Positions 5,780 through 28,920 of a stretch of DNA of 64,000 nucleotides are shown here, piece after piece. The position numbers and the translations under genes are program-made. This DNA is from Spirochaetia bacterium (GTDB taxonomy: Bacteria > Spirochaetota > Spirochaetia > UBA9216): assembly GCA_963675665.1 (NCBI GenBank), contig OY776510.1, positions 1 through 64,000 on the forward strand, in the 5' to 3' direction. The notes below the pieces were generated by a model. That model saw only the letters and a list, made by a program, of their open reading frames with translations. It did no database searches and had not been told where the DNA came from. Within the stretch, counting starts at the first letter, position 1. The number at the start of each line of letters is the position of its first letter.

Positions 5780-5820
5780 GGGAGCCATCAAAACACATAT
5801 AATTAATGGAAGGGATACAA

Positions 5821-9882: not shown

Positions 9883-10248
9883 ATGGTTCTGTATAAAGAG
9901 TTAAGTTATCAAATTATAGGCTGCTGCATGCAGGTACACAAAGGGCTCGGTTGCGGCCTGCTTGAGCAGTGTTATCACAACGCTCTTTATTTTGAGCTTA
10001 AGGAAGCAGGATTTCAGGTGCGTTATAATGCTCCGTATGAGGTAAAATATAAAGGCAATACCGTCGGTGAATATCTTGCCGACCTTGTCGTTGAGGGAAA
10101 AATTATCCTTGACCTGAAGTCCGTAAAACAATTGGCAGAGACTCATCAGGCGCAGTTAATCAATTATCTGCGCATTTCCGGTTGCCGTGTAGGTTACCTG
10201 CTTAATTTTCAGACCTGCAGGCTTGAGTTTCAGCGGTTTGTGGTGTGA
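9883..10248 (+). CDS. GxxExxY protein (PD-(D/E)XK nuclease-like), copy 1
   Basis: GLLEQCY, ADLVVEGKIILDLK, AQLINYL, GYLLNF; AGGAGG RBS. Confidence 0.92.
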   Translation: MVLYKELSYQIIGCCMQVHKGLGCGLLEQCYHNALYFELKEAGFQVRYNAPYEVKYKGNTVGEYLADLVVEGKIILDLKSVKQLAETHQAQLINYLRISGCRVGYLLNFQTCRLEFQRFVV

Positions 10249-10255
10249 GCCCTTA

Positions 10256-10795
10256 TTATGTCAAATCAAGATCAAAGACATCAAGAGCTTTTCCATCGCC
10301 CTCCCATTCAAGGGTTCCTTTGCATTTATGGCACCACCAGATTGTTTTAAGATATTTTTTCTCAACAAGCGTCGGGATTTGATCATAGAACTTTTTATTG
10401 TCCGGATACAGTTCGCTGTAAAAGTGATACAGCCCTTTTGTCCTTTTTCTGCCGTTACAACTCTTACAGACAAGAACCTGATTGTGAATTGCCTGGATAT
10501 GTTCACAAGTGGGGCACCGTTCGTTGATTTTCAGGGATTTCGGTATAATATGTTCCCGTTACAAATCTTCTTCGGTGCCACAGTAGGCGCATCTTCTTTC
10601 GGCATTTACAAGCTGTTTATCCTCCCGCAGGATCTAGGACCATTTAATCTCATTATCACGAAGCTCCCGGAATTTCACCTTAACAAATCCGTATAATTTC
10701 TTCTTTGCATCAGCCCCAATTGCACTTCTTGCGATGACCTTTGCATACTGGTAATAGATTAGATCTTTTATTGTCTTAACTTCTTTATCAGGCAA
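10256..10795 (-). pseudogene. HNH endonuclease pseudogene with two in-frame stops
   Basis: hand translation MPDKEVKTIKDLIYYQYAK...KWS*ILRED...CAYCGTEEDL*REHIIPKS...NQVLVCKSCNGRK; TAG at 10634-10636, TAA at 10559-10561. Confidence 0.85.
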
Positions 10796-10818
10796 GGTTT
10801 ACTCTATAACTTCATATA

Positions 10819-13665
10819 TCAAGCTGCTATTATTCCGTTAATAAATGTTTCGACAAAACCGAGGAGTTTTGCTGTTATTCGTTCTGCCGTGGTCTTGCGT
10901 TCCTTCAGAGCAGGGCGATTGTTCATCACTCCGATTATATCATCACGAAGCGGAACTTTTTCGGTAAACAGATAATTACCGATAAGCTCCTGGAGCCTGG
11001 CAGGTTCGATATCTTCCTCAAGTCCGATTTGTTGCAGGGCAAGAAGCTGTTCTTTATCCCAAAAAATCTGGAACGCCTCAGGGATATCGTCGGAATCTGC
11101 GATGAACGTAAGATTCTCGTTTATGAATTTCTCTATAAGCTCGCGCTTACTGCGCATATGAGCATCACCGGCAAGCAGATCAATGATTACTTTTTTCTGT
11201 TTTTCATACTCGCCTTCGTCGGCGTCTTTAAGATTAGCCAGCAGTTTCAGGATATAGGCTACGTTTATTTCATCACGGTGGATAAGCTCAAGCTCGAAAT
11301 CTATATCGTTGAGAATTGAGACCTTTTCCTTCTGATTATAGCCCTTCGCCTTATCATAGAGGTCCAGATACTTGCTCTTGTAATCTTCAAAACGCTGCTC
11401 GTCCATGGATAGATCACCAAAGCTGAATTGGGTAAAGGTTTTAAGCACGTTCCGGATGCGCATCAGCTCGCGGAAGATCTTTATAAACTCAAGCGCGGCA
11501 TTTTCATCGGGAAGATTGTTGACGCTGTCCACCGTGGGTGCAATCTTCAAGAGCTCAATATAAGCCTCATTAAACTTTCCGACATATTCTTCATAAGGCT
11601 GCATGATGATAATATCTTTGGCGTCCTTATTTGCAAATAGCGCTATTGCATCATCCGTAGCCTTCTTCAGATTTCTGAAACAGACTATATTACCCTGAGA
11701 CTTTAATTCATTGAGTATTCGGTTGGTACGGGAGTAGGCCTGAAGCAATCCGTGGTATTTAAGATTCTTATCCACAAAGAGGGTGTTAAGGTTTTTGCTG
11801 TCGAAGCCGGTGAGAAACATATTAACCACCAGGAGCAGATCAATTTGCCGGTGTTTAACCCGTTTGGCAAGATCATTGTAATAGTTATAGAAACTCTTGC
11901 TGTCGCGGGTGGTGAAGTTGGTACCGAACTGAGAGTTGTAATCGCCGATAAACTCCTCAAGCGAATCGCGGGAATGCTGATTCACAGGCCCGGCATCGGC
12001 CGCAAGGGCGTTACAGTCATCATCGATAAAAACACCCACGGCATCCTTATCATCCTCGTTTGCAGCATAGGAAAAGATAGTAGCCACCCTGAGGTTGTGC
12101 TCGCCTTTCTCTTTTTTAAGCCTGAACAGATGGTAATACTCGATAAGAACATCAATACTCTGCACCGCGAAGACAGCCGTAAACTCGCGGTTGTGAGTCT
12201 TGCGCCCGTGATTGGCGATTATGTAGTCAGTAATAATGTTCAGACGAGGCGGAGCATTCATTACCTCGGCACGGTCTATATCCTCAACCTCAATATCGAA
12301 AATATGCTCCTTCTTTTTAAAGGTACGGATATATTCGATGGAAAACTTAAGGACATTCTCATCACGGATGGCATCGGTAATAACATAGCGGTGAAGCATC
12401 TTGTCGAACAGCATCGACGTGGTGCGCTTGCCGTATTCGTTCGTACCCGCGTTCTCTTTAAAGATAGGCGTACCCGTAAAACCGAACATCTGACAGCTTC
12501 CGAAGAAACGCTTGATATCCTCATGCGTCTTACCGAACTGCGAACGATGACACTCGTCAAAGATAAAAACAACCCGCTTGTCTTTTAACGCCCCCATCCT
12601 GCCCAGATACTTCTTCTTACTGATGGCCGTGTTCAGCTTCTGTATAGTAGTGACAATGAGTTTATTATCACCCGCCATCTGCTTAACCAAAGTCTCTGTG
12701 TTATTCGTGCCGTCGATGCTCCCTTTGCTGAAGCTGTTGAACTCTTTGGTAGTCTGATAATCAAGATCCTTGCGATCGACTACAAAGACAACCTTGTGAA
12801 CCTTTGGAGAGCGCGTAAGAATCTGCGCAGTCTTGAATGAGGTAAGCGTCTTACCCGAACCCGTCGTATGCCAGATATAACCGTTTTTAACCGTCGTCTC
12901 AACCCGCTCAATAATAGCCTCGACCGCATAAAACTGATAAGGCCTGAGCACCATCAGGATCTTCTGCGACTCATTAAGAACCACATAGCGCGTAATCATC
13001 TTTGAGATATGACAGGGCTCAAGAAAGACATCGGCAAAATCGGAAAGCTGGGAGACAATTTTGTTGTTCACATCGGACCAGTAAAAAGTCTGCTTGAACG
13101 AACGCGCCTTTACCGGACCGTTGGCATAATACTTGGTATTCACCCCGTTACTGATTACAAAAATCTGAATAAACTGAAAAAGCCCCTGCCCCGCCGAATA
13201 CGAATGCCGCTCATAGCGGTTGGTCTGATTGAAGGCCTCCTTAAGCTCAAGCCCCCGCCGTTTAAGTTCAATCTGCACCAGCGGCAGACCGTTAAAAAGG
13301 AGCGTAACATCATAGCGGTTCCTGTAAGCATCCTCCATAGTAACCTGCCGCGTAACCTGAAACTCATTCTTGCACCACTGAAGCTGATTAATAAGCTCGA
13401 CCGTCTTATGCTCGCCCTCCTCGTTAATGTAAGGTACACGATCACGCAGGATCTTAGCCCGCTCAAAGATATTACCCTTGCTTATGTAGTTGAGGATCTG
13501 CTTAAAATCATTATCAGAAAGCTCAGTCTTATTATGAACCTCAAGCTGAACCCTGAGATTGGCAAGCAGCTCAGCCTCGTCCCTGACGACGACCTGCTTA
13601 TAGCCCAAACCGCACAACTGCTTTACAAGAGCATCCTCAAGAATAACCTCGGGCTGGGTAGTCAT
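10819..13665 (-). CDS. hsdR: type I restriction endonuclease subunit R
   Basis: YDVTLLFNGLPLVQIELK, WHTTGSGKT, DECHR, GFTGTP, MFLTGFD, QAYSRTNR; ATG overlaps the hsdS stop (TAATG). Confidence 0.96.
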   Translation of the reverse strand: MTTQPEVILEDALVKQLCGLGYKQVVVRDEAELLANLRVQLEVHNKTELSDNDFKQILNYISKGNIFERAKILRDRVPYINEEGEHKTVELINQLQWCKNEFQVTRQVTMEDAYRNRYDVTLLFNGLPLVQIELKRRGLELKEAFNQTNRYERHSYSAGQGLFQFIQIFVISNGVNTKYYANGPVKARSFKQTFYWSDVNNKIVSQLSDFADVFLEPCHISKMITRYVVLNESQKILMVLRPYQFYAVEAIIERVETTVKNGYIWHTTGSGKTLTSFKTAQILTRSPKVHKVVFVVDRKDLDYQTTKEFNSFSKGSIDGTNNTETLVKQMAGDNKLIVTTIQKLNTAISKKKYLGRMGALKDKRVVFIFDECHRSQFGKTHEDIKRFFGSCQMFGFTGTPIFKENAGTNEYGKRTTSMLFDKMLHRYVITDAIRDENVLKFSIEYIRTFKKKEHIFDIEVEDIDRAEVMNAPPRLNIITDYIIANHGRKTHNREFTAVFAVQSIDVLIEYYHLFRLKKEKGEHNLRVATIFSYAANEDDKDAVGVFIDDDCNALAADAGPVNQHSRDSLEEFIGDYNSQFGTNFTTRDSKSFYNYYNDLAKRVKHRQIDLLLVVNMFLTGFDSKNLNTLFVDKNLKYHGLLQAYSRTNRILNELKSQGNIVCFRNLKKATDDAIALFANKDAKDIIIMQPYEEYVGKFNEAYIELLKIAPTVDSVNNLPDENAALEFIKIFRELMRIRNVLKTFTQFSFGDLSMDEQRFEDYKSKYLDLYDKAKGYNQKEKVSILNDIDFELELIHRDEINVAYILKLLANLKDADEGEYEKQKKVIIDLLAGDAHMRSKRELIEKFINENLTFIADSDDIPEAFQIFWDKEQLLALQQIGLEEDIEPARLQELIGNYLFTEKVPLRDDIIGVMNNRPALKERKTTAERITAKLLGFVETFINGIIAA

Positions 13666-14867
13666 TACACAAACATCCTCTGAAGCAACCAATTTTTCCA
13701 GCTCTGAGACAACTCAATCTGTGAAGCAACCTGTTCGATAGCTCTGTCGATGGAGGAGAGGAAGGAAGCGATCTTTTGCTGTTCGGGGAGTGAGGGGATA
13801 AAAAATTTTAATGTTCGAAGATCATTTCCGGTAAATCCCTTGATAGATGTACCCTGAGCCAGTCGAATAAATCTACCTGAAAATGCACTGAAATAATAAG
13901 CCAGAAACCACGGATTCTCATTTGTTATCATATTGGTAAAATCCTGACTCGTACAAAGGTCTTGGCTTGAAACCGCGAATTTTCCGATCCCGACCCTCGA
14001 AACAATTAAAACACTATTTTTAGGAATAATCTTTGTTGCTGACTCCTTAACAGCCTTGCCCGTAATAAATCTTGTAATATTTATTTTAGAAATCGAATTC
14101 TCACATAAATCTGAACTGGAAATCCACGGGACATCACCCTTCCAATACTCTTCGTTTGTACTATCAGGAGTTCCGCCTCCAATGAATGAACCAATATCAC
14201 CCAGCTTTTTCTCTTCCCAATCAGGGAAATCATTATCGTTTTCATCCTTGAAGCGCAATTTCTGAGAGAAAATCTTCTGCATGATGCCTTTTTTGTATTG
14301 CTCCAGTGCTTCTTTCTTTTTCTGCAGCAGGCTGACACGTTTATCCACTGCGGTAAGGAAAACGGCTATGCGGGTTTGTTCGGGGAGTGTGGGGAATTTA
14401 AATCTACAATTAGAAAAATCTGTTTTATTAATTTGAGGAACAGCTTGGACTCCTGCAAGGAGTTTAATCCTTTTGCCATTTTTTAATAGTATAAAGTAAA
14501 TAAAATCATCGATATATTGTTTATGAGCTTCTAATGCATTTATCTGTTGATTAGTCACAGAGTTACAAGATGTCTGACCAACTTTGCCAATTGTTGAACC
14601 TATGGAGACAAAGAGCGTACTATTCTTCTTTATAATTCGTCCATTTCTAAAGCCTGCTTCTGTTAATGTAGTTTTAGTGGTTTCTATGTATCTACCGTTA
14701 TTTAGGTCCACAGGAGATATAAACAAATAGTCACCATCATAAAATTCTTTCACAGATGTTGGGGGAGTACTTCCCGTCGTTATTTTAGATATTTCCCCTA
14801 ATCTTTTCTCTTCCCACTCTCCTTCAAATCCTGGGAATCTCAGCCGGGGCACATTCTTATTGTTCAT
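13665..14867 (-). CDS. hsdS: type I R-M specificity subunit
   Basis: VPRLRFPGF, two WEEKxLG TRD starts, PTLPEQ/PSLPEQQKIA, LLQRMFV. Confidence 0.95.
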   Translation of the reverse strand: MNNKNVPRLRFPGFEGEWEEKRLGEISKITTGSTPPTSVKEFYDGDYLFISPVDLNNGRYIETTKTTLTEAGFRNGRIIKKNSTLFVSIGSTIGKVGQTSCNSVTNQQINALEAHKQYIDDFIYFILLKNGKRIKLLAGVQAVPQINKTDFSNCRFKFPTLPEQTRIAVFLTAVDKRVSLLQKKKEALEQYKKGIMQKIFSQKLRFKDENDNDFPDWEEKKLGDIGSFIGGGTPDSTNEEYWKGDVPWISSSDLCENSISKINITRFITGKAVKESATKIIPKNSVLIVSRVGIGKFAVSSQDLCTSQDFTNMITNENPWFLAYYFSAFSGRFIRLAQGTSIKGFTGNDLRTLKFFIPSLPEQQKIASFLSSIDRAIEQVASQIELSQSWKNWLLQRMFV

Positions 14868-15140
14868 CCATCATTCTCGTTTTTTCGAATATTTGGGGAA
14901 GGATAATCCGTGGCCATACCTGCGACGCTGATTTTTCCTCTTAGGGGGTTGTCCATGCCCCATAAATAGGCTTCAGGTACTTGTTTTTGGTCTTTAAACA
15001 TAGTTTAATCCCTTTGAATGATGGCTAATTATATCGTTGATGGGTATGATTGGGAAGAATAAAATCATTATGAAAAAGAAAAGACATTGCTTACAAGCTG
15101 ATTGTTTCTATTGATTTAAAACCTTAAATGTGAAAAATCA

Positions 15141-16148: not shown

Positions 16149-16151
16149 ATA

Positions 16152-16583: not shown

Positions 16584-16599
16584 ATCTACTCCTTTTTTC

Positions 16600-16635
16600 T
16601 TGACAAAGTTCGGTATATCGTATATATTCGGTATA
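16600..16635 (+). promoter_or_regulatory. promoter of the Ubl operon with overlapping direct repeats (candidate operator)
   Basis: TTGACA-N17-TATATT; TTCGGTATA at 16609 and 16627. Confidence 0.6.
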
Positions 16636-16708
16636 ACAGATTTTAAATCTGTGGTATATGTTATTTTACGCCATACCATATTTTATGTCAAGGAATTTGG
16701 AGGTTCAA

Positions 16709-16960
16709 ATGAAACCTGAAAAAGACAAGATTTACGAGATAATTGTAAATGCAAAGAAAGTTCAAGTAGACCATAAAAGGGTCTCCTTTGAAGAAATTGT
16801 GATTATAGCTTTTGGTTCGTACACGCCATCGGAAACGGTAATTTATACTGTTACCTTCAGCAAAGGTGAGCATGGGCATGAAGGATCACTAGTTGCTGGT
16901 AAAACAGTCAATGTAAAAGATGGGATGGTGTTTAATGTCAAACAAACTAATAAGTCATAA
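16709..16960 (+). CDS. multiubiquitin-domain ubiquitin-like protein
   Basis: 83 aa, IIVN..VSFEEIV..YTVTF..GSL..G..V.VKDGMVFNV pattern; GGAGG RBS. Confidence 0.8.
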   Translation: MKPEKDKIYEIIVNAKKVQVDHKRVSFEEIVIIAFGSYTPSETVIYTVTFSKGEHGHEGSLVAGKTVNVKDGMVFNVKQTNKS

Positions 16961-18104
16961 TGCAGATCTATCTCGTCTAGTCAATGATGGTTATTCTGTT
17001 TCTTTGATTGATGGTTATTTAATTATTGAAAACGTCCCATATGTGAATTCCAAGAAAGAAATTGTCGGCGGCATCTTAATTTCAGAAATTTCGATTTCTG
17101 GTGATAAAATACTTCCTCCTGCCAATCATGTTATTCACTTTCAGGGTGATTGCCCTTGTGATAATCAGGGTAAACCGATCTCGTCAATAAAACACCAAAC
17201 GACAAATAGAAAAATAATGGAGGGGCTTATTTCCAATTATTCATTTTCAAATAAGCCAAAAGAAGGGTTCAATAATCACTATGATAAAATAACACACTAT
17301 CTTAGAATCCTTACCCATTATGCACAGGCAATCGATGAAGAAGCAAAAGCCAATAGCCCACATTTTGATTTCAATCATGAGTCTTCATTGAAGTATACAG
17401 ATACAAATTCTAGTCGATCTTTTATTTCTGCTGTGTCAAATAAAATAAAAAACCAAAAAATTGCAATTATTGGTATAGGAGGTACCGGATCATACATATT
17501 AGATTTTGTTGCAAAAACTGAGGTTAAAGAAATACACTTATACGATAGTGACGTTTTCTCCCAGCATAATGCATTCAGATCACCAGGTGCACCTGCAAAA
17601 GAAGTCTTTAATAAGGATATACCTAAAGTATCATATTTTAATAACATCTATTCTAATATGCATAACGGAATAGTCCTTCACGAAGAGGACATTACAAACA
17701 CTAATATGCAGAATCTTTCAGAGATGGATTGTGTGTTTGTTAGCATAGATATTTCTAAACCGAAGGGTTCCCTATTTCCATTCTTAATAGACAATAATAT
17801 TCCATTTATAGATGTAGGAATGGGAGTTGAGATTCAAGATGAACATTTATTCGGTATTTTGAGGGTAACTTCTATTACCCAAAACTGTCAAAATGCTTAT
17901 ATCGGCAAAGTTTCACTCCAAGATGAAGAAGATGATGTTTATGCTTCCAATATTCAGATTTCTGAACTTAATGCTTTGAATGCTGCACTTGCTGTTATTA
18001 AATGGAAAAAAATGTTTGGATTTTATGATGACCAAAATGACGAACACCATACTTTATATACTATAAATACAGGACAACTACTAAATGAAGACTGTTCGCT
18101 ATAA
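16935..18104 (+). CDS. E2-like (DUF6791-like) plus ThiF/E1 adenylyltransferase fusion
   Basis: N-terminal VPYV/HVIHFQG/FSNKP domain; IAIIGIGGTGSYILD, HLYDSD, HNAFR, IDVGMG, ELNALNAALAV. Confidence 0.82.
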   Translation: MSNKLISHNADLSRLVNDGYSVSLIDGYLIIENVPYVNSKKEIVGGILISEISISGDKILPPANHVIHFQGDCPCDNQGKPISSIKHQTTNRKIMEGLISNYSFSNKPKEGFNNHYDKITHYLRILTHYAQAIDEEAKANSPHFDFNHESSLKYTDTNSSRSFISAVSNKIKNQKIAIIGIGGTGSYILDFVAKTEVKEIHLYDSDVFSQHNAFRSPGAPAKEVFNKDIPKVSYFNNIYSNMHNGIVLHEEDITNTNMQNLSEMDCVFVSIDISKPKGSLFPFLIDNNIPFIDVGMGVEIQDEHLFGILRVTSITQNCQNAYIGKVSLQDEEDDVYASNIQISELNALNAALAVIKWKKMFGFYDDQNDEHHTLYTINTGQLLNEDCSL

Positions 18105-18480
18105 ATTTGTAGAATTTATTCCTGAAGAGCTTGAGGAAGGGGTATTGTTTGTCTCTACTAAGTACCAAATAGCAATACATTTATGCCCTTGTGGGTGTGG
18201 AAATAAAGTAGTAACACCTTTGTCACCAACAGATTGGAAGTTGGAATATAAAAATGGTTCTGTATCTCTTTCCCCTTCGATCGGAAATTGGTCTTTTAAA
18301 TGCAAATCGCACTATTGGATAAAAAATAATATAATAATTTGGGCAGAACCATTTTCTGACTATAAAATTGCTAGAATACGTGAACATGAGCGTAAAGAAA
18401 AAAAGCACTATTACAGAAAAAAGAAATGGGAGAAAATAAAAAAGATGTTCCATTTAATTTTCGCATCAAAAAAGTTATGA
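18085..18480 (+). CDS. DUF6527-family protein
   Basis: HLCPCGCG, SLSPSIGNWSFKCKSHYWI. Confidence 0.8.
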   Translation: MKTVRYKFVEFIPEELEEGVLFVSTKYQIAIHLCPCGCGNKVVTPLSPTDWKLEYKNGSVSLSPSIGNWSFKCKSHYWIKNNIIIWAEPFSDYKIARIREHERKEKKHYYRKKKWEKIKKMFHLIFASKKL

Positions 18481-18539
18481 TCTGCCTTTAAATCACCGTC
18501 ACGTTTCTCCGAAATATCCAATACGGTGTTCCTTTCGCT

Positions 18540-18804: not shown

Positions 18805-19443
18805 TTATTTAGATAAATACTCTATATAATGTGGTTCAATAGTCGCCCATCGCCAAAAAATAATATCTATTACATTTAAACTATCGCCAGTTACTTCTAA
18901 AATTTCTGTACAAAGTTCCAAAGGATTTTTAAAACCTAGAGCATCAGCAATTCTCATTAAATGTCTATCTGGTTTAACTGTGGATACACCTAAATTTTTA
19001 AATAGATGTATTGTGGTTACAGGTCCAAGAAATTTAAATTGATAAAAATAATTTTCATTCTTTTGAATTAAATTATCCTTAACAACTTGAAACCCATTTT
19101 CATGTAAAAATTGAATAACGTCACAAACCCCATCCATTTTAGACTTATTATTAAAAATCTTCAAAGCTTGAATCTTATTTTTTTGTTTATTGCGATTCAA
19201 ATTATCAACATCTACCCAATTATTAAATGCATTAGATATTCCATCAAATTTTGTACGTAAGATGCTCTCTTTAAAACCAGAAGAGAAGATTACCCAGGCA
19301 TATTCTCTCAGAAAATCCGTTTCATTGATTTTCTCAATATCAATGTTTTCCTGCCACTCTATTTCATATTCATATCCGAAGTGGATAACTTGCTCTTTAA
19401 TATCTAAATATTTATCAATTACATTGTCTATCTTTTTTAACAT
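18805..19443 (-). CDS. HhH N-glycosylase/DNA lyase-like protein (type IV CBASS Cap11-like)
   Basis: FLREYAWVIFSSGF, FLGPVTTIHLFKNLG, VKPDRHLMRI; last gene of the operon. Confidence 0.8.
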   Translation of the reverse strand: MLKKIDNVIDKYLDIKEQVIHFGYEYEIEWQENIDIEKINETDFLREYAWVIFSSGFKESILRTKFDGISNAFNNWVDVDNLNRNKQKNKIQALKIFNNKSKMDGVCDVIQFLHENGFQVVKDNLIQKNENYFYQFKFLGPVTTIHLFKNLGVSTVKPDRHLMRIADALGFKNPLELCTEILEVTGDSLNVIDIIFWRWATIEPHYIEYLSK

Positions 19444-19987
19444 TATCCAAACAACCTAATTTCAATTTAATTCTAAGTAGTGTTAAAGAAATACCGGGAT
19501 TCTTTGACATTTCCATACTCACCTTTCTTTTATATAGATGTCTTGCTTTATACTTTAAAAACTTTGATTCTGGAATATCAATAATATCTTTCATAACAGC
19601 ATCATAGATTTCTGTAAAATCAATTTTTTCATTATTTTTGAAAGCATTACGATATTTATTTTTTAAATCCGACAATTTATTAATAGCAATTTGATGAAAC
19701 GAGATCAGTTCTTTCCAGTTTAACTTATTCTCTAATAAAGATAGAAAGAGAACTATAACTGAAAAAATAGCTGTTAAAATTTCTATTAAATTCTCTGGTA
19801 CATTTAGAAGTTGAGATAGTTTAGGCTCAGATAATAATAGAGCACAGGTAAAGACAGAAAAGAATAATAAACAAATATCTAAAATTTGACTTTTCAGTTT
19901 ATATTCATCCCGAGCTGATGAATGCATTGATAACATTTGATCTATAACTCGGTATTGTCTCTCATTTTCTTCAATTTTATTGGTCAT
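19415..19987 (-). CDS. 2TM SLATT-like CBASS membrane effector
   Basis: two hydrophobic helices then W....H motif; directly downstream of the cyclase. Confidence 0.75.
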   Translation of the reverse strand: MTNKIEENERQYRVIDQMLSMHSSARDEYKLKSQILDICLLFFSVFTCALLLSEPKLSQLLNVPENLIEILTAIFSVIVLFLSLLENKLNWKELISFHQIAINKLSDLKNKYRNAFKNNEKIDFTEIYDAVMKDIIDIPESKFLKYKARHLYKRKVSMEMSKNPGISLTLLRIKLKLGCLDNVKKDRQCN

Positions 19988-20918
19988 TTCCTAATAACCT
20001 TGACCAACTATCTATAACAAACTCTTGATCTCTTACAGCATCCAAATTCATTATTTTTCTGCTTATTCTGTCTAAAGCAACCGAGATTATTCTTCTTTGA
20101 GTGGAATTAGCAGGACCTAAATAATCATCAACATGCAAAGATTGCCCAGTTTTGTCAGTTATTGGTGATTTTACAGCGTTTACTGCTTCTTTAAAGAAAT
20201 ATTTAACCATTTCTTTATAAGTTTTTGTATCATTATATTTCCTAAAAATATTTACTGCTAATGATTCTATATGATAACCACTCAATTGTTGTTTTTCTGG
20301 TAAGCTTTTTATTATAGCTTTGACCAATTTTATCGTAGGAACTACAATTCCATTATTTTCCTTATTAACAGATGTAAGTATGTCGGTAAAACTCTTGGTA
20401 TTAATATTAGACCAATGTTGTCCATCAATTGAGCTTATCTTCAATCCGTTACCGACCCGAATAGCCGGAAGTAATTGGATTTCATAATCTTTAACTTGAA
20501 TTGTAACCGCCAATAGCCCAGAACTAACGTTTTCATTTCCATATTTCTTCGATAATATTTGTTGAATCAATTCCTTAATCTCTTTTGGAGTTTTTCCATC
20601 CGCTGCAGACTGATCTATACATACTAAGGAATCGATATCACTAATTCCTTCTACATATGTATTTTTCTGAACAGAACCTCCAAATAATATATTTATAGTA
20701 TCGGAAATTATATCTTTTAATTCGTCTTTAATTGAATCCAAAAGCTCATTAATCTCATCACTATTTCGATCATTACAATGAACCAATTGCTTAGCAAGAT
20801 AATCATTTACTAAAGTATTTATACCTTCGTCAGCATTAGTTTCATTTGCTTCCCTAATCTTCTTAACCTCATCTGCTGGATTAATTCTCCGCCATACACT
20901 GCTTCCCGAACCACCCAT
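19977..20918 (-). CDS. CD-NTase/SMODS cyclic oligonucleotide synthase
   Basis: FGGSVQKNTYVEGISDIDSL nucleotidyltransferase motif, IQLLPA, LSGYHIESL; N-terminus MGGSG. Confidence 0.87.
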   Translation of the reverse strand: MGGSGSSVWRRINPADEVKKIREANETNADEGINTLVNDYLAKQLVHCNDRNSDEINELLDSIKDELKDIISDTINILFGGSVQKNTYVEGISDIDSLVCIDQSAADGKTPKEIKELIQQILSKKYGNENVSSGLLAVTIQVKDYEIQLLPAIRVGNGLKISSIDGQHWSNINTKSFTDILTSVNKENNGIVVPTIKLVKAIIKSLPEKQQLSGYHIESLAVNIFRKYNDTKTYKEMVKYFFKEAVNAVKSPITDKTGQSLHVDDYLGPANSTQRRIISVALDRISRKIMNLDAVRDQEFVIDSWSRLLGNDQ

Positions 20919-21937
20919 CATTTAACTCCTTTTACCTTTGTTCCAAGACGATCCATAGCACTCTTTATTCTATCAGCATGTATTCCGAATTTACTAAAAT
21001 CTTTCGTATCTAAAAACTCCCTAAGAATATATTCTATATTTTCAAGATTATATATATTTTCTCGTATACTATTTAGTGCAATTTGTTTTTCTGTAGTCTG
21101 AATTCCCCATTTTAAAAAACCATAATTATGTGGATATATACAGGTGTTATCGTAGTACGAATAACGCAACCAGGTTAATCCATCAAAAATCTCTGCTCCT
21201 GCTAAAAAATATAAACACACACTAATAGGATCTAAAGCTCCGAAAATATGTAATGGAGCACTTATAGATGCTTCATCAAGTGCCTTCCTAACACGTGAAA
21301 TATTTACCATACGATCTAAAATAGATGGACCTAACTCTTTTTCTGTTAATCCAATAATATCAAATTTGCTAAACCTATCGATGTTTATTATTATTTTCTT
21401 GATAACATCATCTTTTAATTTATTATCATTCTCGCTTTCAGGTTTTATTAAGAACAAATTTAACTGGTCAGAATAATTACTAAATATATCCAAGGCAATT
21501 TCAATCTGATCTTCAAGGCTTTTTCTCTCTTTAGGATTATCATAGCTAACGAAAACACTTGAATACTCTTTCGGCCAATTTGCCAGAACTTCTTTATATA
21601 GTTGCACATTCCATTTTTTGGCTTTAACTGGTACATGAACTACTGTCGAATAATCATCTGTTTCAGAAACCTCATAACCACCGCTATCTAGAAAGAAAAG
21701 CTCTGGAATTGTTTCAAGCTTTAAAGGTTCAGTAATATATTTATAATAAATATCATATGCACTCACAAGGCAAGCTTTTGTAAAAAACTCACTTGCAACA
21801 TGATAAATTTTATCAATTCCTTTTTTACCTGACACCTTAAAATTAAAACCTTTACTTGAGAAAGAAGGTATCAGCAATGGAGTGTTTACTTTAAGTCCAC
21901 TTGCTTTATGATGAATATTTGAACTTCTTGCAATCAT
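20918..21937 (-). CDS. TGT (tRNA-guanine transglycosylase)-like protein (Cap10-like)
   Basis: TPLLIPS, FFLDSGGYE, LHIFGAL, AGAEIFDG. Confidence 0.8.
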   Translation of the reverse strand: MIARSSNIHHKASGLKVNTPLLIPSFSSKGFNFKVSGKKGIDKIYHVASEFFTKACLVSAYDIYYKYITEPLKLETIPELFFLDSGGYEVSETDDYSTVVHVPVKAKKWNVQLYKEVLANWPKEYSSVFVSYDNPKERKSLEDQIEIALDIFSNYSDQLNLFLIKPESENDNKLKDDVIKKIIINIDRFSKFDIIGLTEKELGPSILDRMVNISRVRKALDEASISAPLHIFGALDPISVCLYFLAGAEIFDGLTWLRYSYYDNTCIYPHNYGFLKWGIQTTEKQIALNSIRENIYNLENIEYILREFLDTKDFSKFGIHADRIKSAMDRLGTKVKGVK

Positions 21938-22481
21938 ACAGATACTCCAAATCTTTACAACTTCGACATTTACCACATGGTTGCTGCAACCCCAACTCGC
22001 AACTATATGTCTTATAACGATTTAGCTTATTTTTAATAAAGTAATTATAAATTTCTAATTTATCCCAGTTTAAAAAAGGTGCAACAAAGGTCAATCGGCC
22101 CGAACTATAGTTATTAACTATTTCTTTTGCCACTTTATAAAAATCAGGTGAACAATCATAATATGAAGTACCGGAATGAATGCCCATAGCAATAATCCCT
22201 TTGTTATGTCCTTCCATTAAAGCCGCACTTAATAGAAATAAATTGCGCCCCAAAATCTCGCCAGAGTGTAAAGTGATATTATTTTTATATTCACAAATTT
22301 TTAGAGGTATTTCCATCTCTTTTGCTATTTGAAGAACAGTTGACCGTTCCTGTTTATTGCTTAATTGCCCATAATCTACAAATAACAAATTACGTGAGTA
22401 TTCTTCCCCTGAGAATATATGAACACAAGAAGTAGAGTCTAATCCTCCACTAAATAGAATTGTTACATTTACTTTTTCCAC
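21906..22481 (-). CDS. QueC-family ATP pyrophosphatase (Cap9-like)
   Basis: LFSGGLDS, VDYGQ, GRN, YYDCS, TYSC..PCGKCRSC. Confidence 0.9.
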   Translation of the reverse strand: MEKVNVTILFSGGLDSTSCVHIFSGEEYSRNLLFVDYGQLSNKQERSTVLQIAKEMEIPLKICEYKNNITLHSGEILGRNLFLLSAALMEGHNKGIIAMGIHSGTSYYDCSPDFYKVAKEIVNNYSSGRLTFVAPFLNWDKLEIYNYFIKNKLNRYKTYSCELGLQQPCGKCRSCKDLEYLYDCKKFKYSS

Positions 22482-22711
22482 TTCCTCTTCCTATTAAAAA
22501 TAATCAAAGGAACATTATATTTATAAAATTACTCAATAATATCATATACCTTAATAAATTTCGACCATTTTTAGTATTTGATAAACCTTGTCACAACGAT
22601 AACTAACATCTAAACAACTATCAACTCATCACATTCTTACTCATATTTCATTGCCTCACAACAACTTACACCCAATCCGCGGCCTCCTAAATCCGTGGCA
22701 AAACAACTCTC

Positions 22712-23077
22712 CTACACCACAAACCGCTTAAAAACAACCCTTGCACCCTGAAAATTAACCAGATACCCCACCCTGCACTTGCTTATATGAAGATAGTTAA
22801 TAAGCTGCGCCTCATGCATACCCGAAAGAGCCTTAACAGCCTTAATTTCAATAATAACCCGATTATCAACAGCCAAATCAGCAAAAAACTCACCCACCTG
22901 CTGCCCCCGATAAAAAACATTAAGCGGAGCATTATAAACAACATTTAACCCCAAAGACCTTAACTCATAATACAAAGCATTATAATAACAAGACTCAAGC
23001 AACCCCGACTTCAACTCATTATGAACGCTGAAAAACCCACCCACGATTTTATTAGACAACTCTTCAAACAACAGCAT
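22712..23077 (-). CDS. GxxExxY protein, copy 2
   Basis: GLLESCY, ADLAVDNRVIIEIK, EAQLINYL, GYLVNF; AGGAGG RBS. Confidence 0.92.
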   Translation of the reverse strand: MLLFEELSNKIVGGFFSVHNELKSGLLESCYYNALYYELRSLGLNVVYNAPLNVFYRGQQVGEFFADLAVDNRVIIEIKAVKALSGMHEAQLINYLHISKCRVGYLVNFQGARVVFKRFVV

Positions 23078-23107
23078 AACCTGCCTCCTTTTTTCTTAAA
23101 AAGACAG

Positions 23108-23196
23108 CAGGCTTGCAGTGACGAGCAGTCAAGGGTAAAAATGGCATAGCCATTTTACTCGCCTTGCCCTTGACGGCGAGGAGCGAAAGGTATAAT
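23108..23196 (+). promoter_or_regulatory. conserved hairpin upstream of GxxExxY copy 2 (putative ssDNA promoter)
   Basis: GTGACGAGCAGTCAAGGG / CCCTTGACGGCGAGGAGC stem, inner AAAATGGC-ATA-GCCATTTT; TTGACG-N15-TATAAT on the 3' arm. Confidence 0.6.
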
Positions 23197-23535
23197 GAAA
23201 AAACCCGGAGGCAGATAAGATATTTTCACCCAAAAGCGTAAACAAAAAGAAATATCGCTTCGCGGCTGCTAGTTTAAGCGAGACTATAGGGATTAACGCA
23301 GGCCGTGTTACCCGCGTGCTTTACCCCGGCCATCCGTGGCAAACAACCTCTTCCTGAAGAAATTCAACCACGAAATCCCAGATATTACGTAACATTTATA
23401 GAATTTTTCACGTAGAAGGATACATCTAAAAAACTGTTTTGAAATTATATACATGCCCATCTGATAATATAAAAACACACTTCGATTTGCTATAAATCCG
23501 TGGCTCTCTTCATCCGTGGCAAATAAACTCTAATT

Positions 23536-24593: not shown

Positions 24594-24781
24594 TTATCCA
24601 CCTTCATGGCCATTTTTTCTATTATATTTTATAAATCGTCTTAATATTACATAATTATAATCCAGATTACCGCCATACGTATAGAACAATTTTGTCCAAG
24701 CACTGTGTTACCCGACTGTTCCACTACATATATCCGTGGTCTCAAAATCCGTTGCTAAATACTAAAAATAAGGATTAGGCC

Positions 24782-24959
24782 CCTACACCACAAACCGCTT
24801 AAACACAACCCTTGAACCCTGAAAATTAACCAGATACCCCACCCGGCACTTGCTTATATGAAGATAGTTAATAAGCTGCGCCTCATGCATACCCGAAAGA
24901 GCCTTAACAGCCTTAATTTCAATAATTACCCGATTATCAACAGCCAGATCAGCAAAAAA
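24782..24959 (-). pseudogene. 3' half of a GxxExxY gene, near-identical to 22711-22888
   Basis: ~178-bp direct repeat with few mismatches; 5' half of the gene and the hairpin are absent. Confidence 0.88.
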
Positions 24960-25145
24960 TATAAGGAAAAGTCCTGGAGGTAGACAACATATTAGCGCCC
25001 GAAACCATAAACAAAAAGATAAATCCGTAGTTTTCTTTATCGGTTCGCGGCGACTATTTTAGTCAACCTATTGGGCTTAACGCCGCCTGTAACCAATTAC
25101 TCTGCTCTCATTAGCTCTTGACTGATAATCTAAAGTTGATTCAGA

Positions 25146-25637
25146 CTATGGTTGAAAAACAAACCGGACTCTTTCCCGTCTGAGCAGATCAAATGTGTTA
25201 ATATACGGAATATTCATTGCAATACAAACATTTGGGATTTTTACCTTTTTTCGGCTTTCTCCAGGAGTTTCAAGCGTTACAACGGTATGCCCGCCGGCAA
25301 GAGCCTGCGCACAAAGATAATAATCAGCTATCTGGAGAAATTGCATAACAGCAGCCTGATCATAATCTCCGCTGTTCACCCATAAACTGATATTCTGTAA
25401 AGTCGCTACATCCAACTGTTGAGGCTGTAGAAAAAAATCCGCAGGCAGTGAATGAACCCAATCAACCAGTTCATCTTCTCCGGCAATGATCTCATCTTTT
25501 ACTTTGGATACGCTGAAAACCTGATTCCCATCATGTGCTTCCCTCAACCAAGTCCAGAACCCCGGACAAAAATCCATACCGTAATATAGATTTTTTGCAG
25601 CTATAAGCACATTAGAATCAAGTAAATACGCCATCAA
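25146..25637 (-). CDS. DUF4411-family PIN-like protein
   Basis: YLLDSNVLI, FCPGFWTWL, ADYYL, VVTLE, KIPNVC. Confidence 0.85.
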   Translation of the reverse strand: MMAYLLDSNVLIAAKNLYYGMDFCPGFWTWLREAHDGNQVFSVSKVKDEIIAGEDELVDWVHSLPADFFLQPQQLDVATLQNISLWVNSGDYDQAAVMQFLQIADYYLCAQALAGGHTVVTLETPGESRKKVKIPNVCIAMNIPYINTFDLLRRERVRFVFQP

Positions 25638-26791: not shown

Positions 26792-26864
26792 TACTTTTCA
26801 ATTACTCCTGAAAATAAGTATATCTTAACCGTTTACAATCAACAACAATATTCCATACCAGTCA

Positions 26865-28442
26865 TTACATTTTAAACGGTACAGTTATACCAAGCTCTTT
26901 ACAGTAGCCAGCTATCTCTTCATTAACCTCTTCAAGCTCATTCTCAATATCTACCAACGATACCGCAACAGCATCAAGATCAACCGGCTCCTCCTCTTCA
27001 AAGGTATCAACATAGCGCGGGATATTCAGATTGTAATCATTCTCGGCGATCTCGGACAAAGCAGCAGCATATGAATACTTGTCCTTAGTTTCACGAGAAC
27101 GAAAGGTCGAAACAATCTCTTCAACATCGCTGTCCCGAAGTGCATTCTGATTACCCTCTTTTACAAAATGCCCGTCTCCGCTTGCATCAATGAAGATGAT
27201 ATTATCATCAGACTTCCTGCACTTCTTGAATACAAGGATACAGGTAGGGATGGATGTACCGTAAAAAATGTTCGCCGGCAGCCCTATTACTGCATCAAGA
27301 AAATTAAGCTCCTTAATCAGATACTCCCTTATTACGCCCTCGGCAGCGCCTCTGAACAGAACACCGTGCGGAAGCACAGTAGCCATAATGCCGTTATCAG
27401 CGAGCTGATGGATCATGTGCAGAACAAATGCATAATCAGCCTTGGTCTTCGGCGCCAATTTACCGTATCGGCTGAAGCGTTCATCGGAGCTGTACAGCGG
27501 GTTTGCATCACCCTTCCAGTGGGCGGAGAACGGCGGATTAGCGACAACAGCCTCAAAGCGTTTATCAAGGTGCTGAGGATTTTCAAGGGTATCCTCGTGC
27601 CTTATATCAAAATTACGATAGTGAACATCATGCAGGATCATATTCATCCGAGCGAGGTTGTAGGTAGTCCGGTTCTGCTCCTGACCGAAAAACTCGCTGA
27701 CATCATCCACCTCGCGGGCGACTCGTAGAAGAAGAGAACCCGAACCGCAGGTAGGATCATACACCGATTTAAGCCTGCGCTTTCCGGTGGTAACAACCTT
27801 TGCCAGGATCTTCGAAACCTGCTGGGGCGTATAAAACTCTCCGGCCGACTTGCCCGCCCCAGCGGCGAACTTACCTATTAAATATTCATAAGCATCACCG
27901 AGAACGTCAGAATCAACCTCTTTCAACTTGAAATCTATCTTATCAAGATTTACAAGGATTTTAACGATTATCTCGTTTCGGGCTCCTACCGTACGTCCAA
28001 TCTTGGTGGAGTTAAGATCAAGATCCTCAAACAGGGCGTTAAAATCATCCTCCGATTCGGTTCCCATGGTGCTCTGCTCTATATGGTTCATGATCGCCTG
28101 AAGATCTTCGAGAATATAATTGCTTTCGTTCTCGGTATCGGAACTGCCGCGCTTGGCAAGCTCTGAAAAAAGCTCATGCGGCTGCAGGAAATATCCCAGC
28201 TTTAAAAGCGATTCTTCTTTTATTACTTCAAGGGTTTCAGGATCTTTCACATCCCTGTAATCGGTTACCTCTTCGCCCACTAATAGTTCATTGACGTAAA
28301 GATACTGTTTCTCACTGAGATATTTATAAAAAATAAAACCGAGTATGTAGTCACGGTAATCATCAGCACTGATCTTCCCCCGAAGCAGGTTGGCTATGCC
28401 CCATAATTGTTTTTCAAGCAGTTGTTTTTGATCATCAGACAT
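26865..28442 (-). CDS. hsdM: type I R-M methyltransferase subunit (N6-adenine)
   Basis: LWGIANLLRG, GDAYEYLI, GEFYTP, YDPTCGSGSLL, ANPPF, LPHGVLFRG, YNLNIPRYVD. Confidence 0.97.
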   Translation of the reverse strand: MSDDQKQLLEKQLWGIANLLRGKISADDYRDYILGFIFYKYLSEKQYLYVNELLVGEEVTDYRDVKDPETLEVIKEESLLKLGYFLQPHELFSELAKRGSSDTENESNYILEDLQAIMNHIEQSTMGTESEDDFNALFEDLDLNSTKIGRTVGARNEIIVKILVNLDKIDFKLKEVDSDVLGDAYEYLIGKFAAGAGKSAGEFYTPQQVSKILAKVVTTGKRRLKSVYDPTCGSGSLLLRVAREVDDVSEFFGQEQNRTTYNLARMNMILHDVHYRNFDIRHEDTLENPQHLDKRFEAVVANPPFSAHWKGDANPLYSSDERFSRYGKLAPKTKADYAFVLHMIHQLADNGIMATVLPHGVLFRGAAEGVIREYLIKELNFLDAVIGLPANIFYGTSIPTCILVFKKCRKSDDNIIFIDASGDGHFVKEGNQNALRDSDVEEIVSTFRSRETKDKYSYAAALSEIAENDYNLNIPRYVDTFEEEEPVDLDAVAVSLVDIENELEEVNEEIAGYCKELGITVPFKM

Positions 28443-28548
28443 GGTGGAATTATATCCTTCAGGGATTTGAATGTATAGAAGTTTTTTAACCGGGGCCTAC
28501 ACTCAGATAAATTCTTGCTGATCAAAACCGTTAATATGACAAGCTCCC

Positions 28549-28920
28549 CTACACCACCAAACGCCGCCAAACGACACGCCTGCCGTTAAAATTAACCAGG
28601 TAACCGACTTCAAGACCTGACAACCGCAGATAGTTAAGCAGCTGTGCTTCCATTGCAGGAGTAAACTCTTTAACAGATTTAAGTTCTAATATTATTTTGC
28701 CTTCAACGACCATATCAGCAATATAGGCAGCCGCTAGCTCACCACGATAGTAAACCGGATAAACATGCTGTCTGCTGATTTCAAGCCCGCGATGCTTAAA
28801 CTCTATAACTAAAGCACCTTCATAAGCTGATTCCAATAATCCGGGCCCCAGGGAATTATGTACCGCAAACACAGCACCCAACACCTGATTTGATAATTCA
28901 TTTTCAATTAACTCTGACAT
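28549..28920 (-). CDS. GxxExxY protein, copy 3
   Basis: LGPGLLESAYE, ADMVVEGKIILELK, EAQLLNYL; start moved to ATG 28920 after AGGAGG. Confidence 0.92.
   Translation of the reverse strand: MSELIENELSNQVLGAVFAVHNSLGPGLLESAYEGALVIEFKHRGLEISRQHVYPVYYRGELAAAYIADMVVEGKIILELKSVKEFTPAMEAQLLNYLRLSGLEVGYLVNFNGRRVVWRRLVV

Follow-up and report, generated by a model that had tools for sequence, protein, structure and literature searches.

A 64,000-nucleotide stretch of a Spirochaetia bacterium genome (contig OY776510.1, positions 1 to 64,000; hereafter the window) contains a 20.2-kb block of defence genes that is enclosed by two diverged 665-bp repeats of a PFOR gene 3′ end and carries four copies of the small GxxExxY gene. 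The question is whether these genes are the machinery that moves the island and captures its cargo, or selfish mini-elements that serve as recombination joints, both of which had been proposed in a preliminary description of the locus. Sequence comparison suggests that they are selfish mini-elements beside which defence and TA modules get swapped, and not the engine that moved the island.

GxxExxY copies in the island

The four copies in the block are as follows.

9883..10248, + strand: copy A, intact, pointing into the island; first intact ORF inside the repeats
22712..23077, − strand: copy B, intact, between CBASS QueC and the PIN_10/DUF433 pair; upstream of and co-oriented with the CBASS operon
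24782..24959, − strand: copy C′, 3′ part only, between the TA pair and DUF4411/ImmA; fused directly to an upstream remnant
28549..28920, − strand: copy D, intact, pointing into the island; last intact ORF inside the repeats, 107 nt upstream of and co-oriented with hsdM

Copies A and D match PF13366 (E 4e-40 and 1e-37) and TIGR04256. Against TIGR04256 (cut-off 35) the intact copies A, B and D reach 129-142 bits, and against PF13366 (cut-off 22) they reach 122-137 bits; C′ covers PF13366 positions 61-115 only. Because GxxExxY genes stand at opposite ends of the island, A on the + strand and D on the − strand, the terminal pair is convergent, just as the preliminary description had it. C′ is 97% identical to copy B over 178 nt, and the parts upstream are only about 60% alike, a mosaic that requires recombination inside the ORF.

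The whole genome of 5,150,563 bp has eight PF13366 matches, and four of them fall within 19.6 kb (0.4% of its length). The binomial probability of this clustering is 1.4e-8, or 1.9e-6 when B and C′ are counted as one event. An even genome-wide scatter, which had been named as the observation that would speak against the proposal, is not seen. No more than two genes away from seven of the eight copies there are R-M, TA, CRISPR-Cas, other defence-like or IS genes, and copies B, C′, D and E each read in the same direction as the operon that follows them directly.

The GxxExxY protein

GxxExxY (PF13366, PDDEXK_3) is a large orphan family with a sparse literature, and a 2012 survey lists its function as unknown. 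The 30 aligned sequences all have E28, Y31, D67 and K79, and nearly all have G25 and E77. The predicted model, with a pLDDT of 94.9, has an alpha-beta-beta-beta-alpha-beta core, and its best Foldseek matches are Cas4 SSO0001 (4ic1), lambda exonuclease and Hjc (probability 0.99-1.00), with TM-scores normalised to the query of 0.60 to 4ic1 and 0.48 to 2wj0; phmmer found no solved homologue. The gene is thus predicted, from alignment and model, to encode a PD-(D/E)XK nuclease of about 120 codons, with an intact predicted active site in all intact copies aligned. It shares with the Cas4/RecB-family nuclease core and archaeal Hjc both the fold and the catalytic D...E-x-K with an upstream E. Compared with Cas4, however, it is half the size, has no Fe-S cluster module and is only about 20% identical in sequence.

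Anatomy of the cassette

Eight copies can be aligned from about 190 nt upstream of the ATG through the stop codon, but not past the stop. The conserved upstream region is probably the cassette's own promoter, and it includes a leader hairpin in which a 22-bp helix closes a variable inner hairpin. Three of these hairpins lie in the island.

9771..9847, + strand: leader hairpin of cassette A, with the 22-bp helix closing the variable inner hairpin
23120..23180, − strand: leader hairpin of cassette B
28960..29020, − strand: leader hairpin of cassette D, with an inner stem of different sequence and the same shape

In the helix, 84% of cells are paired, against 65% in shuffles (none of 500 reaches 84%) and 31-54% when slid, and compensatory changes occur in 16 of 22 pairs. 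Since the sense strand has 23 G.U cells and 6 A.C cells, the hairpin reads as an mRNA structure. It had been argued that, whichever strand becomes single-stranded, one terminal cassette presents its hairpin on the proper strand; given its place in the leader upstream of the ORF and the excess of G.U over A.C, this argument is not supported, and the hairpin lends no support to a strand-specific single-stranded DNA site. No Rfam family reaches its gathering score anywhere in the window, and the 22400-25300 region yields only chance-level matches (E up to 5). A CCTCC box upstream of the leader was considered as an anti-Shine-Dalgarno element and dropped, because the box is probably upstream of the transcript start. 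The leader also has an antisense sigma-70-like promoter.

A minimal unit is seen in genome G008, where a single cassette lies between 47-nt direct repeats. In family f1 the words on either side of a cassette are direct repeats (L027 has a pair of 47 nt); in genomes G369 and G393 they are inverted, and each of these two genomes has the flank word once. The cassettes show no consistent short duplication of their targets. Strict word doublets number eight in the present genome, against 1-4 per shuffled 2 Mb. A REP-like repeat family was rejected, as the 9-mer word has 33 exact genomic copies, about chance level by a rough estimate.

Cargo of the island

The island consists of a split type I R-M operon that encloses a Bub-like ubiquitin-type system, a type IV CBASS, a TA pair and an ImmA-DUF4411 pair.

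10252..10795, − strand: HNH-type endonuclease frame, probable pseudogene with two in-frame stops
10819..13692, − strand: hsdR, type I restriction subunit
13665..14867, − strand: hsdS, type I specificity subunit
14864..15001, − strand: second hsdM, internally deleted, 45 codons; over its first 82 nt it shares 71% identity with the intact hsdM start
15141-16148, − strand: HExxH protein, no family match
16152-16679, − strand: HTH regulator, weak capH match
16658..18480, + strand: multiubiquitin / DUF6791-ThiF E1-like / DUF6527 operon, which we take to be Bub-like
18805..22481, − strand: CBASS operon (QueC, TGT, CD-NTase, 2TM effector, OGG), presumably type IV
23536-23919, − strand: PIN_10 protein of the TA-like pair
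23916-24593, − strand: DUF433/HTH protein of the TA-like pair
25146-25637, − strand: DUF4411
25634-26791, − strand: ImmA/IrrE-type peptidase
26865..28442, − strand: hsdM, intact type I methylase

The hsdR, hsdS and hsdM genes are all intact, with 12 kb between hsdM and hsdS, and the 45-codon hsdM remnant abuts hsdS. An occurrence of GCCACGGAT at 14906-14914 is set aside as a chance one inside the reading frame of this remnant. The pieces of the HNH-type frame have no Pfam match, and the HExxH protein may be CapP-like, to judge from its motif. The CBASS genes are recognised by PADLOC (Cyclase 3.8e-108, 2TM effector 1.3e-31, QueC 2.4e-62, TGT 7.2e-110, OGG 4.3e-71), which has no model matching GxxExxY. 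The preliminary description saw the cassettes as punctuating these modules, with copies at the CBASS/TA and TA/ImmA-DUF4411 junctions. Both of these are present, the second being the 3′ part C′, so that two of the five inner seams carry a copy; the hsdS/CapP, Bub/CBASS and ImmA/hsdM seams carry none.

Defence genes embedded in type I R-M operons are reportedly the subject of a 2024 preprint by Payne et al. TgvAB of V. cholerae VPI-2 is likewise embedded in a type I R-M operon (PMC11411939). The likeness is that cargo lies between hsdM and hsdS/hsdR; the present island differs in its 13.4 kb of cargo with four systems, its second, internally deleted hsdM and its GxxExxY cassettes. A full-text literature search for 'GxxExxY' listed neither the TgvAB paper nor the preprint.

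Borders of the island

The island is bordered by the PFOR 3′ end in two diverged copies rather than by GxxExxY cassettes.

8923..9588, + strand: left repeat; the final 423 nt of the intact PFOR gene (5806-9345) with its terminator region, and an element of J1-like words
29141..29807, + strand: right repeat; orphan PFOR 3′ fragment (ORF 29144-29563) and the same downstream region as the left repeat

Segment 8923-9222 is 93% identical to 29141-29440, and 9372-9588 is 88% identical to 29591-29807. The PFOR coding part has 401 of 423 positions identical and the downstream part 209 of 253 (95% and 83%), and the two repeats are of different allele types. No site-specific recombinase is encoded between 9589 and 29140, nor does any integrase or transposase lie between the repeats, and Phage_integrase has no match in a scan of 23 proteins from the island and its surroundings; that the island is integrase-less had been correctly recognised. 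An integrase-mediated island at a gene 3′ end was rejected, as there is no recombinase between the repeats, which are 665 bp long and 83-95% identical rather than short identical att cores. Described type I R-M units flanked by long direct target repeats resemble the island in having extra genes and no integrase, but their tabulated repeats are 45-49 bp and near-identical, whereas those here measure 665 bp, represent two allele types and are 95%/83% identical.

The arrival of the island at the PFOR 3′ end was probably an event of its own, either an insertion with a long duplicated target or a single-crossover integration of foreign DNA that brought its own PFOR 3′ end. No empty PFOR site was found in six relatives, whose PFOR-downstream DNA is not collinear with the right flank here, and no relative examined holds the hsdM/ImmA region. 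The two other public runs containing the region show no variant of it, and the contigs of their assemblies break at the B/C′ repeat. An apparent 20000-bp back-jump joint in the run contigs is the left PFOR copy aligned to the right one, not a circle, and a low-depth run contig is a different cassette from another organism.

Junction repeats J1 and J2

Two repeats, J1 and J2, occur around the cassettes, and words of the J1 type recur at the island borders.

9477..9526, + strand: J1-like word element in the left repeat, two CCAC-N-GAT-type words and GGGTATACGC; weak nhmmer matches, E about 0.5
22666..22710, − strand: J1 word doublet just 3′ of copy B
23240-23310, − strand: J2 upstream of cassette B (block 23240..23356)
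23294-23351, − strand: J1 upstream of cassette B (same block)
23476..23531, − strand: J1 word doublet just 3′ of the TA pair
24697..24750, − strand: J1 word doublet just 3′ of copy C′
25025..25094, − strand: J2 upstream of C′, immediately following the stop of DUF4411
29105..29140, − strand: J1-like words outside cassette D, immediately next to where the right repeat starts
29696-29746: twin of the left J1-like word element, in the right repeat

J1 and J2 are lineage-specific repeats flanking the cassette. Thirteen of the 15 J1 matches in this genome lie in three defence regions. J2 is confined to one genus and one other genome, while the cassettes are phylum-wide, and one relative has 17 J2 copies within 14 kb that all face the same way. 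A partial tRNA-Leu copy adjoining a true tRNA-Leu gene is related to J2, a kinship that points to an integrase-type attachment site; Phage_integrase has no match in the 18 annotated loci of relatives.

Integron cassette arrays consist of short modules split by one repeat, and integrase-less (cis-mobilisable) elements accrete in tandem at att sites. The J-separated modules resemble both, and J2 is like part of a tRNA-Leu-derived attachment region. An integron reading of J was nevertheless rejected, since there is no integron integrase, and J is neither an imperfect palindrome of the attC type nor a match to the attC consensus.

Cassettes in related spirochaetes and in other phyla

Of the 21 copies in relatives, 16 likewise lie no more than two genes from R-M, TA, CRISPR-Cas, other defence-like or IS genes. 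Syntenic loci show where their homology ends. Between loci L058 and L063 a 91.8% identical block stops 12 nt past the GxxExxY stop codon, and is followed by HigBA in one and by CcdAB and NERD in the other; between L060 and L062 the flank is 96% and the cassette 81% identical, and the DNA past the stop is unrelated. Of the 16 loci that the author classed, not blind, as island edges, 14 have the variable block on the 3′ side of the cassette. In two genomes a TA module is enclosed by duplicated GxxExxY 3′ parts: the TA pair of the present genome sits between B and C′, and the MNT/HEPN pair of G008 (L065) separates two cassette heads, 92-93% alike, at a place where G010 (L057) carries a single cassette. 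These self-contained units in many contexts, with homology of syntenic loci stopping at the cassette 3′ end, support the second proposal of the preliminary description, selfish mini-elements that act as recombination joints.

Turnover of the cassettes is also indicated. The congeneric genomes G369 and G393 have, at one site, cassettes that are only 71% alike and oppositely oriented between flanks 89-92% alike, and a search of 41 relatives shows that truncation of the copies is common. A clean empty site was recovered in the relatives searched for none of the copies of the present genome, and no movement was observed directly. Cargo is bracketed by convergent pairs in G010 (L060) and G001 (L074), with homologous MTase and PLD-helicase genes at 42% and 32% identity, and by a direct pair in G349 (L080). 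Among the matches listed in the phylum search (150 of 199), neighbouring pairs are tandem in nine cases, divergent in two and convergent in none, so inward-pointing caps are not a general feature. Paralogous cassettes are mostly 60-75% identical in protein sequence, probably too low for efficient homologous recombination, and only B/C′ and the L065 pair are similar enough for it.

A different context is found outside Spirochaetota, in 48 loci collected with a single-protein query. A clear TA- or defence-type neighbour lies within two genes in three of them (L129, L162 and L164), or in five if the doubtful L113 and L161 are added, and the cassettes mostly stand between housekeeping genes (cbiG/cobQ-type, carA/carB, hisA/hisF). 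The defence link is thus lineage-specific, and in the spirochaetes it could be a sink effect.

Possible roles of the cassettes

The cassettes might be passive passengers, that is, insertions, selfish or neutral, that persist only between genes and have no part in recombination. Defence and TA hotspots would then be tolerant sinks, and cassettes would come to lie at module seams by default. The housekeeping neighbours in other phyla, the many decayed copies and the three empty inner seams agree with this, as does the orientation of neighbouring genes: the downstream gene is co-oriented with 25 of 39 cassettes, about the rate for any adjacent bacterial genes, and this figure was dropped as evidence because it is uninformative. 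Passive survival is nevertheless rather unlikely, since homology breaks at most 12 nt from the stop codon and not anywhere in the spacer, the variable block lies so regularly on the 3′ side, two TA modules stand between duplicated cassette 3′ parts, and the B/C′ mosaic had to arise within the ORF. A quite different possibility is that the cassettes are accessories of the operons beside them, either a portable expression head (promoter and regulated leader) or a helper nuclease for the downstream R-M, CBASS, TA or cas operon. Copies B, C′, D and E are placed as this would require, D just before hsdM, and so are those of L057, L058, L061, L066 and L067, while in L060 and L074 a copy heads each of two convergent operons. 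Such a role is, however, very unlikely, as the partners are too diverse for one biochemical function, copy A and 13 others face the 3′ end of their neighbour, the neighbours in other phyla are metabolic, and GxxExxY belongs to no PADLOC model.

At the other extreme, the nuclease would itself capture cargo by making staggered breaks at J or at the 3′ end of its own gene, modules would insert with long target duplications, and the terminal copies would form a composite mobile unit. The absence of an integrase or transposase between the PFOR repeats leaves room for such an activity, and duplications of target-gene 3′ ends fall into three size classes (L065 has 98-145 nt, B/C′ 178 nt and PFOR 665 nt). 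The bracketed cargo in three other genomes, the minimal unit in G008 and the concentration of J1 in defence regions also fit. Yet the PFOR repeats are two allele types and not a fresh duplication, J2 has a far narrower range than the cassettes and its tRNA-Leu kinship suggests an integrase, and cassettes in other phyla have no cargo. A hydrolytic nuclease of 120 residues, moreover, is not known to have strand-transfer activity, and capture of this kind is unlikely. Also unlikely is the proposal that the nucleases and the flanking word and J repeats make up an undescribed integrase-free system, in which incoming defence and TA modules would join at and duplicate the 3′ end of a resident GxxExxY gene, islands would grow by cassettes and a terminal pair could carry a whole block elsewhere.

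The reading preferred here, to which we give about an even chance, is that the copies are self-contained selfish nuclease mini-elements that have gathered in defence hotspots and serve as recombination joints. In this lineage the cassettes would accumulate where defence and TA modules are exchanged, and variable DNA would be joined at or just past the 3′ end of the nuclease gene. Dispersed near-identical copies could provide the homology for insertion and reshuffling of adjoining modules, and the nuclease may cut DNA near the repeats or the gene 3′ end, leading to copying of the cassette and exchange of adjoining DNA.

Comparison with known mobile elements

The seg and mob genes of T-even phages are free-standing homing endonuclease genes, and I-Ssp6803I is a PD-(D/E)XK homing enzyme. 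GxxExxY resembles these in being a small nuclease gene, apparently with its own promoter, that lies between unrelated genes, is patchy among close relatives and has exchanged DNA beside it. It differs in having no recognised cleavage site or empty target, in its structured leader and flanking word repeats, and in being multi-copy in bacterial chromosomes, often between adjacent housekeeping genes. REP/REPIN elements with RAYT transposases are similar in that one small gene is flanked by short lineage-specific repeats that change between lineages, but GxxExxY has the PD-(D/E)XK fold and not HUH, and its words are not a genome-wide family here and are direct, not inverted, around the cassettes.

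The family thus gains a concrete anatomy, with a conserved upstream region, a covarying leader, an intact predicted active site and flanking repeats, and it gains a testable role, in that in one spirochaete lineage defence and TA modules appear to be exchanged right at the GxxExxY 3′ end. Should the nuclease promote this exchange, it would account for the assembly and reshuffling of integrase-less defence islands; if it does not, the cassettes would still mark recombination seams.

GxxExxY copies and the content of the island

The block between the two PFOR (pyruvate:ferredoxin oxidoreductase) 3′-end repeats is a type I restriction-modification (R-M) operon that has been pulled apart, with its cargo lying between hsdM and hsdS.

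Features of the island and its borders (positions in the window)
5806-9345, intact PFOR gene
9883-10248 (+), GxxExxY copy A
10252-10795 (-), HNH-type frame
10819-13692, hsdR
13665-14867, hsdS
14864-15001 (-), second hsdM, internally deleted, 45 codons, overlapping the hsdS start
15141-18480, multiubiquitin / E1-like (DUF6791-ThiF) / DUF6527 operon with HTH regulator and HExxH protein
22712-23077 (-), GxxExxY copy B, between CBASS and the toxin-antitoxin (TA) pair
24782-24959 (-), GxxExxY copy C′, between the TA pair and DUF4411
26865-28442, hsdM
28549-28920 (-), GxxExxY copy D
29141-29807, second PFOR 3′ end

As the preliminary description had it, the first and last intact genes inside the repeats, A and D, are GxxExxY genes (PF13366/TIGR04256). 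The two further copies do lie at the CBASS/TA and TA/DUF4411 junctions, but C′ is a remnant rather than a full gene: its last 59 codons, 97% identical to those of B, are fused straight to an upstream piece that is only about 60% like the one in B. The copies are clustered, not evenly scattered, since four of the eight PF13366 matches in the genome fall within 0.38% of its length, which is far from chance. The proposal that GxxExxY punctuates the modules holds at two of the five seams between distinct systems and fails at the others. The seam between the CBASS OGG gene and the DUF6527 gene has no match to GxxExxY or to the junction repeats described below; its spacer contains four degenerate GAGAGCC-type repeats (18620-18720).

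Four systems make up the cargo: DUF4411 together with an ImmA-type peptidase; the DUF433/PIN_10 pair; a type IV CBASS in which QueC, TGT, cyclase, 2TM effector and OGG form one operon; and the multiubiquitin operon, which is divergent to the HTH regulator and the HExxH protein. The latter has no match in the Pfam, NCBIfam and PADLOC models. In the hsdM remnant the N-terminal ~27 codons are joined to the last few codons, and its first 82 nt are only 71% identical to the intact hsdM 12 kb away, which makes the operon a composite of two systems. The frame next to A extends through the whole of 10252-10795 but is broken by two in-frame stops; with its CxxC and HIIP motifs, characteristic of HNH endonucleases, it is probably a defunct HNH gene that ends the hsdR operon. 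Defence genes nested inside type I R-M operons are described in PMC11411939 (and in Payne et al. 2024, as cited therein).

Leader and protein of the cassette

All eight copies in the genome can be aligned from about 190 nt before the start codon up to the stop codon. The leader is a long helix closing a variable inner hairpin. When 17 leaders from this genome and its relatives are scored against a helix drawn from one sequence, 84% of the helix cells are paired, compared with 65% in shuffles (0 of 500 reach 84%) and 31-54% when the partner is slid, and 16 of the 22 helix pairs have changes on both sides. G.U cells outnumber A.C cells by 23 to 6, which speaks for a folded sense strand and so for an mRNA leader. 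Ten leaders (type 1) have 19-22 of 22 positions paired; six (type 2, including B and D) have 12-15 of 21 paired, chiefly keeping the outer 7 bp; the seventeenth, from copy G elsewhere in the genome, has 20 of 22. No Rfam family matches the leader. On the strand opposite to the GxxExxY gene, a hairpin arm carries TTGACG followed after 15-16 nt by TATAAT, TACAAT or TAAAAT (23171-23197 (+), also at A and D). This element would be a sigma-70-like promoter aimed away from the gene, towards J2/J1, and could drive a small antisense or divergent RNA.

Across the 30 aligned sequences of the protein, E28, D67 and K79 are invariant and E77 is present in at least 90%. The predicted structure (pLDDT 94.9) has as its nearest folds the Cas4/RecB nuclease core, lambda exonuclease and Hjc; sequence search found no relative of solved structure. 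The family's function is listed as unknown in PMC3424549, and PMC8934634 mentions the family in passing.

Junction repeats

Two short lineage-specific repeats, J1 and J2 (either, J), flank the cassettes. J1, about 55 nt, consists of an AGAG box, TTGGCCACGGAT-type words and GGGTAAAG. J2, 70 nt, is a 7-bp stem around a conserved 29-nt loop, with compensating changes that give three forms of the stem (CTGC:GCAG, CCAC:GTGG and CTAC:GTAG). Within the island, both B and C′ have J on their 3′ and 5′ sides, a further copy follows the TA pair on its 3′ side, and each PFOR repeat contains J1-like words, as does the DNA flanking D on the outside. Thirteen of the 15 J1 matches in the genome are in three regions: this island, the type I-C CRISPR-Cas region and, at 2.60-2.66 Mb, a region linked to tRNA-Pro. 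The last has a block of type I R-M, Abi, helicase and TA genes that starts with J (+) and copy G and ends with an inverted J ahead of a housekeeping gene.

Three CCACGGAT-type words with a 10-nt period (locus L087, 6036-6063; genome G000, 2601035) adjoin, on its upstream side, a promoter-like TTGACA...TATCTT of a tRNA-Pro(GGG) gene, which is followed by the tyrosine integrase that opens the 2.60-2.66 Mb island region. An inverted J pair 650 nt apart encloses a leader-like fragment with no GxxExxY gene (L082, 15790-16443; G000, 2656289-2656942) and may be a gutted cassette.

J2 has eight matches in this genome; of the 40 relatives searched, four congeneric genomes and one from another genus of the same family carry it. 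One of these has 35 copies, 17 of them in 14 kb (L069; G004 contig 17, 94.9-109 kb), all in one orientation and often in pairs 83 nt apart. The small modules between them, among which are GxxExxY, a DUF4143 ATPase and an MNT/HepT pair, are arranged much as in an integron, but with no integrase. Two partial tRNA-Leu copies, which run from the anticodon arm to the 3′ end (G000, 926876-926945, in L085 5860-5960; and 4456275-4456344, in L086), have a 45-nt J2-related insert separating the variable arm from the T arm, a kinship which suggests that J may descend from an attachment site. A true tRNA-Leu(CAG) gene is found 2.7 kb from the first copy, and IS fragments and a HepT/MNT pair lie in the interval. 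The true module-punctuating repeats of the genus are the J elements, and GxxExxY is one item between J copies.

PFOR repeats and island borders

The second PFOR 3′ end repeats the last 423 nt of the gene and 240 nt of DNA beyond, with identities of 401/423 in the coding part and 209/253 downstream; six relatives have a single PFOR 3′ end, to which each repeat shows 80-88% identity. The hairpin past the stop codon and a TESF/TASY peptide stretch are of different allele types in the two repeats, and each type occurs in other species of the genus. The repeats are therefore two alleles and not a fresh duplication. No integrase or transposase domain is found in the 19.6 kb between them, where G+C drops to 27-35% in mid-block. 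The way in which the island came to the PFOR 3′ end is reminiscent of the "insertion with long target duplication" reported for R-M units in PMC2853133. The PFOR repeats are much longer than those treated there and are allelic, so that single-crossover integration of foreign DNA with its own PFOR 3′ end suits the arrival at least as well. A 66-nt leader-like remnant directly downstream of PFOR in one relative, and J1-like words there in another, suggest that the site may long have been a home of such elements.

Distribution in spirochaetes and other phyla

In the phylum, 99 of 401 genomes have a GxxExxY match. Among the matches listed (150 of 199), neighbouring pairs within 40 kb are tandem in nine cases, divergent in two and convergent in none, so inward-facing caps are not a general arrangement but a peculiarity of this family or chance. 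R-M, TA, CRISPR-Cas, other defence-like or IS genes lie within two genes of seven of the eight copies in this genome and of 16 of 21 copies in relatives (18 loci, six genomes; the copies without them are in L059, L062, L064, L070 and L073).

With copy A, 79 loci were fetched from species-representative genomes. Of 51 non-spirochaete loci listed for the neighbour scan, 48 were retained that had two called neighbours and 2.5 kb or more on both sides. A clear TA or defence-type neighbour within two genes is present in three (Uma2, PIN, CcdAB) and a doubtful one in two more (SNF2 helicase, Mut7-C RNase). The remaining copies are among housekeeping genes, often between adjacent genes that share a pathway: cbiG and cobQ-type genes in three Geobacteraceae (L104, L109, L110), ABC-2 transporter (permease) genes in four Chloroflexota, three Chloroflexia and one Anaerolineae (L105, L116, L123, L131), carA and carB (L158), and hisA and hisF (L149). 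Such placements are conserved across related species.

Syntenic joints and the role of the cassettes

The joints seen in syntenic pairs are objective. After Patatin-GxxExxY, one genome has HigBA and the other CcdAB and NERD, and the 91.8% identical block stops 12 nt past the stop codon; after DeoC/sugar-binding-GxxExxY, the two genomes compared have 2.2 kb and 9.9 kb, respectively. The PfkB/AspRS/GatB hotspot has one cassette in one genome and two decayed cassette heads (92-93% alike) in another, each preceding a nucleotidyltransferase-type (MNT/HEPN-like) TA pair, in parallel to B-TA-C′ of the island. Two cassettes bracket cargo in three genomes: in G010 and G001, the pairs are convergent and enclose homologous MTase and PLD-helicase genes, each at its own chromosomal site, and G349 has a direct pair around an MTase/HerA-like module. 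By our own classing of edge loci, the variable block is 3′ of the cassette in 14 of 16, the exceptions being L068 and the right copy of L080. At one intergenic site of two congeneric genomes, the cassettes are 71% alike and in opposite orientation, with flanks 89-92% alike.

We give about an even chance to the cassettes being recombination joints. That they are passive passengers is unlikely, if a serious alternative; that they form an active nuclease-driven capture system is improbable; and an accessory function for the downstream operon is very improbable.

This analysis adds the leader covariation, the J elements with their tRNA-Leu link, the breakpoints at the cassette 3′ end, the flanking of TA modules by duplicated 3′ ends, and the difference between this lineage and other phyla. 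We read the cassette as, in its general nature, a selfish insertion able to live anywhere between genes; in this lineage, the copies concentrate where modules swap, and the swaps end at the cassette 3′ end.
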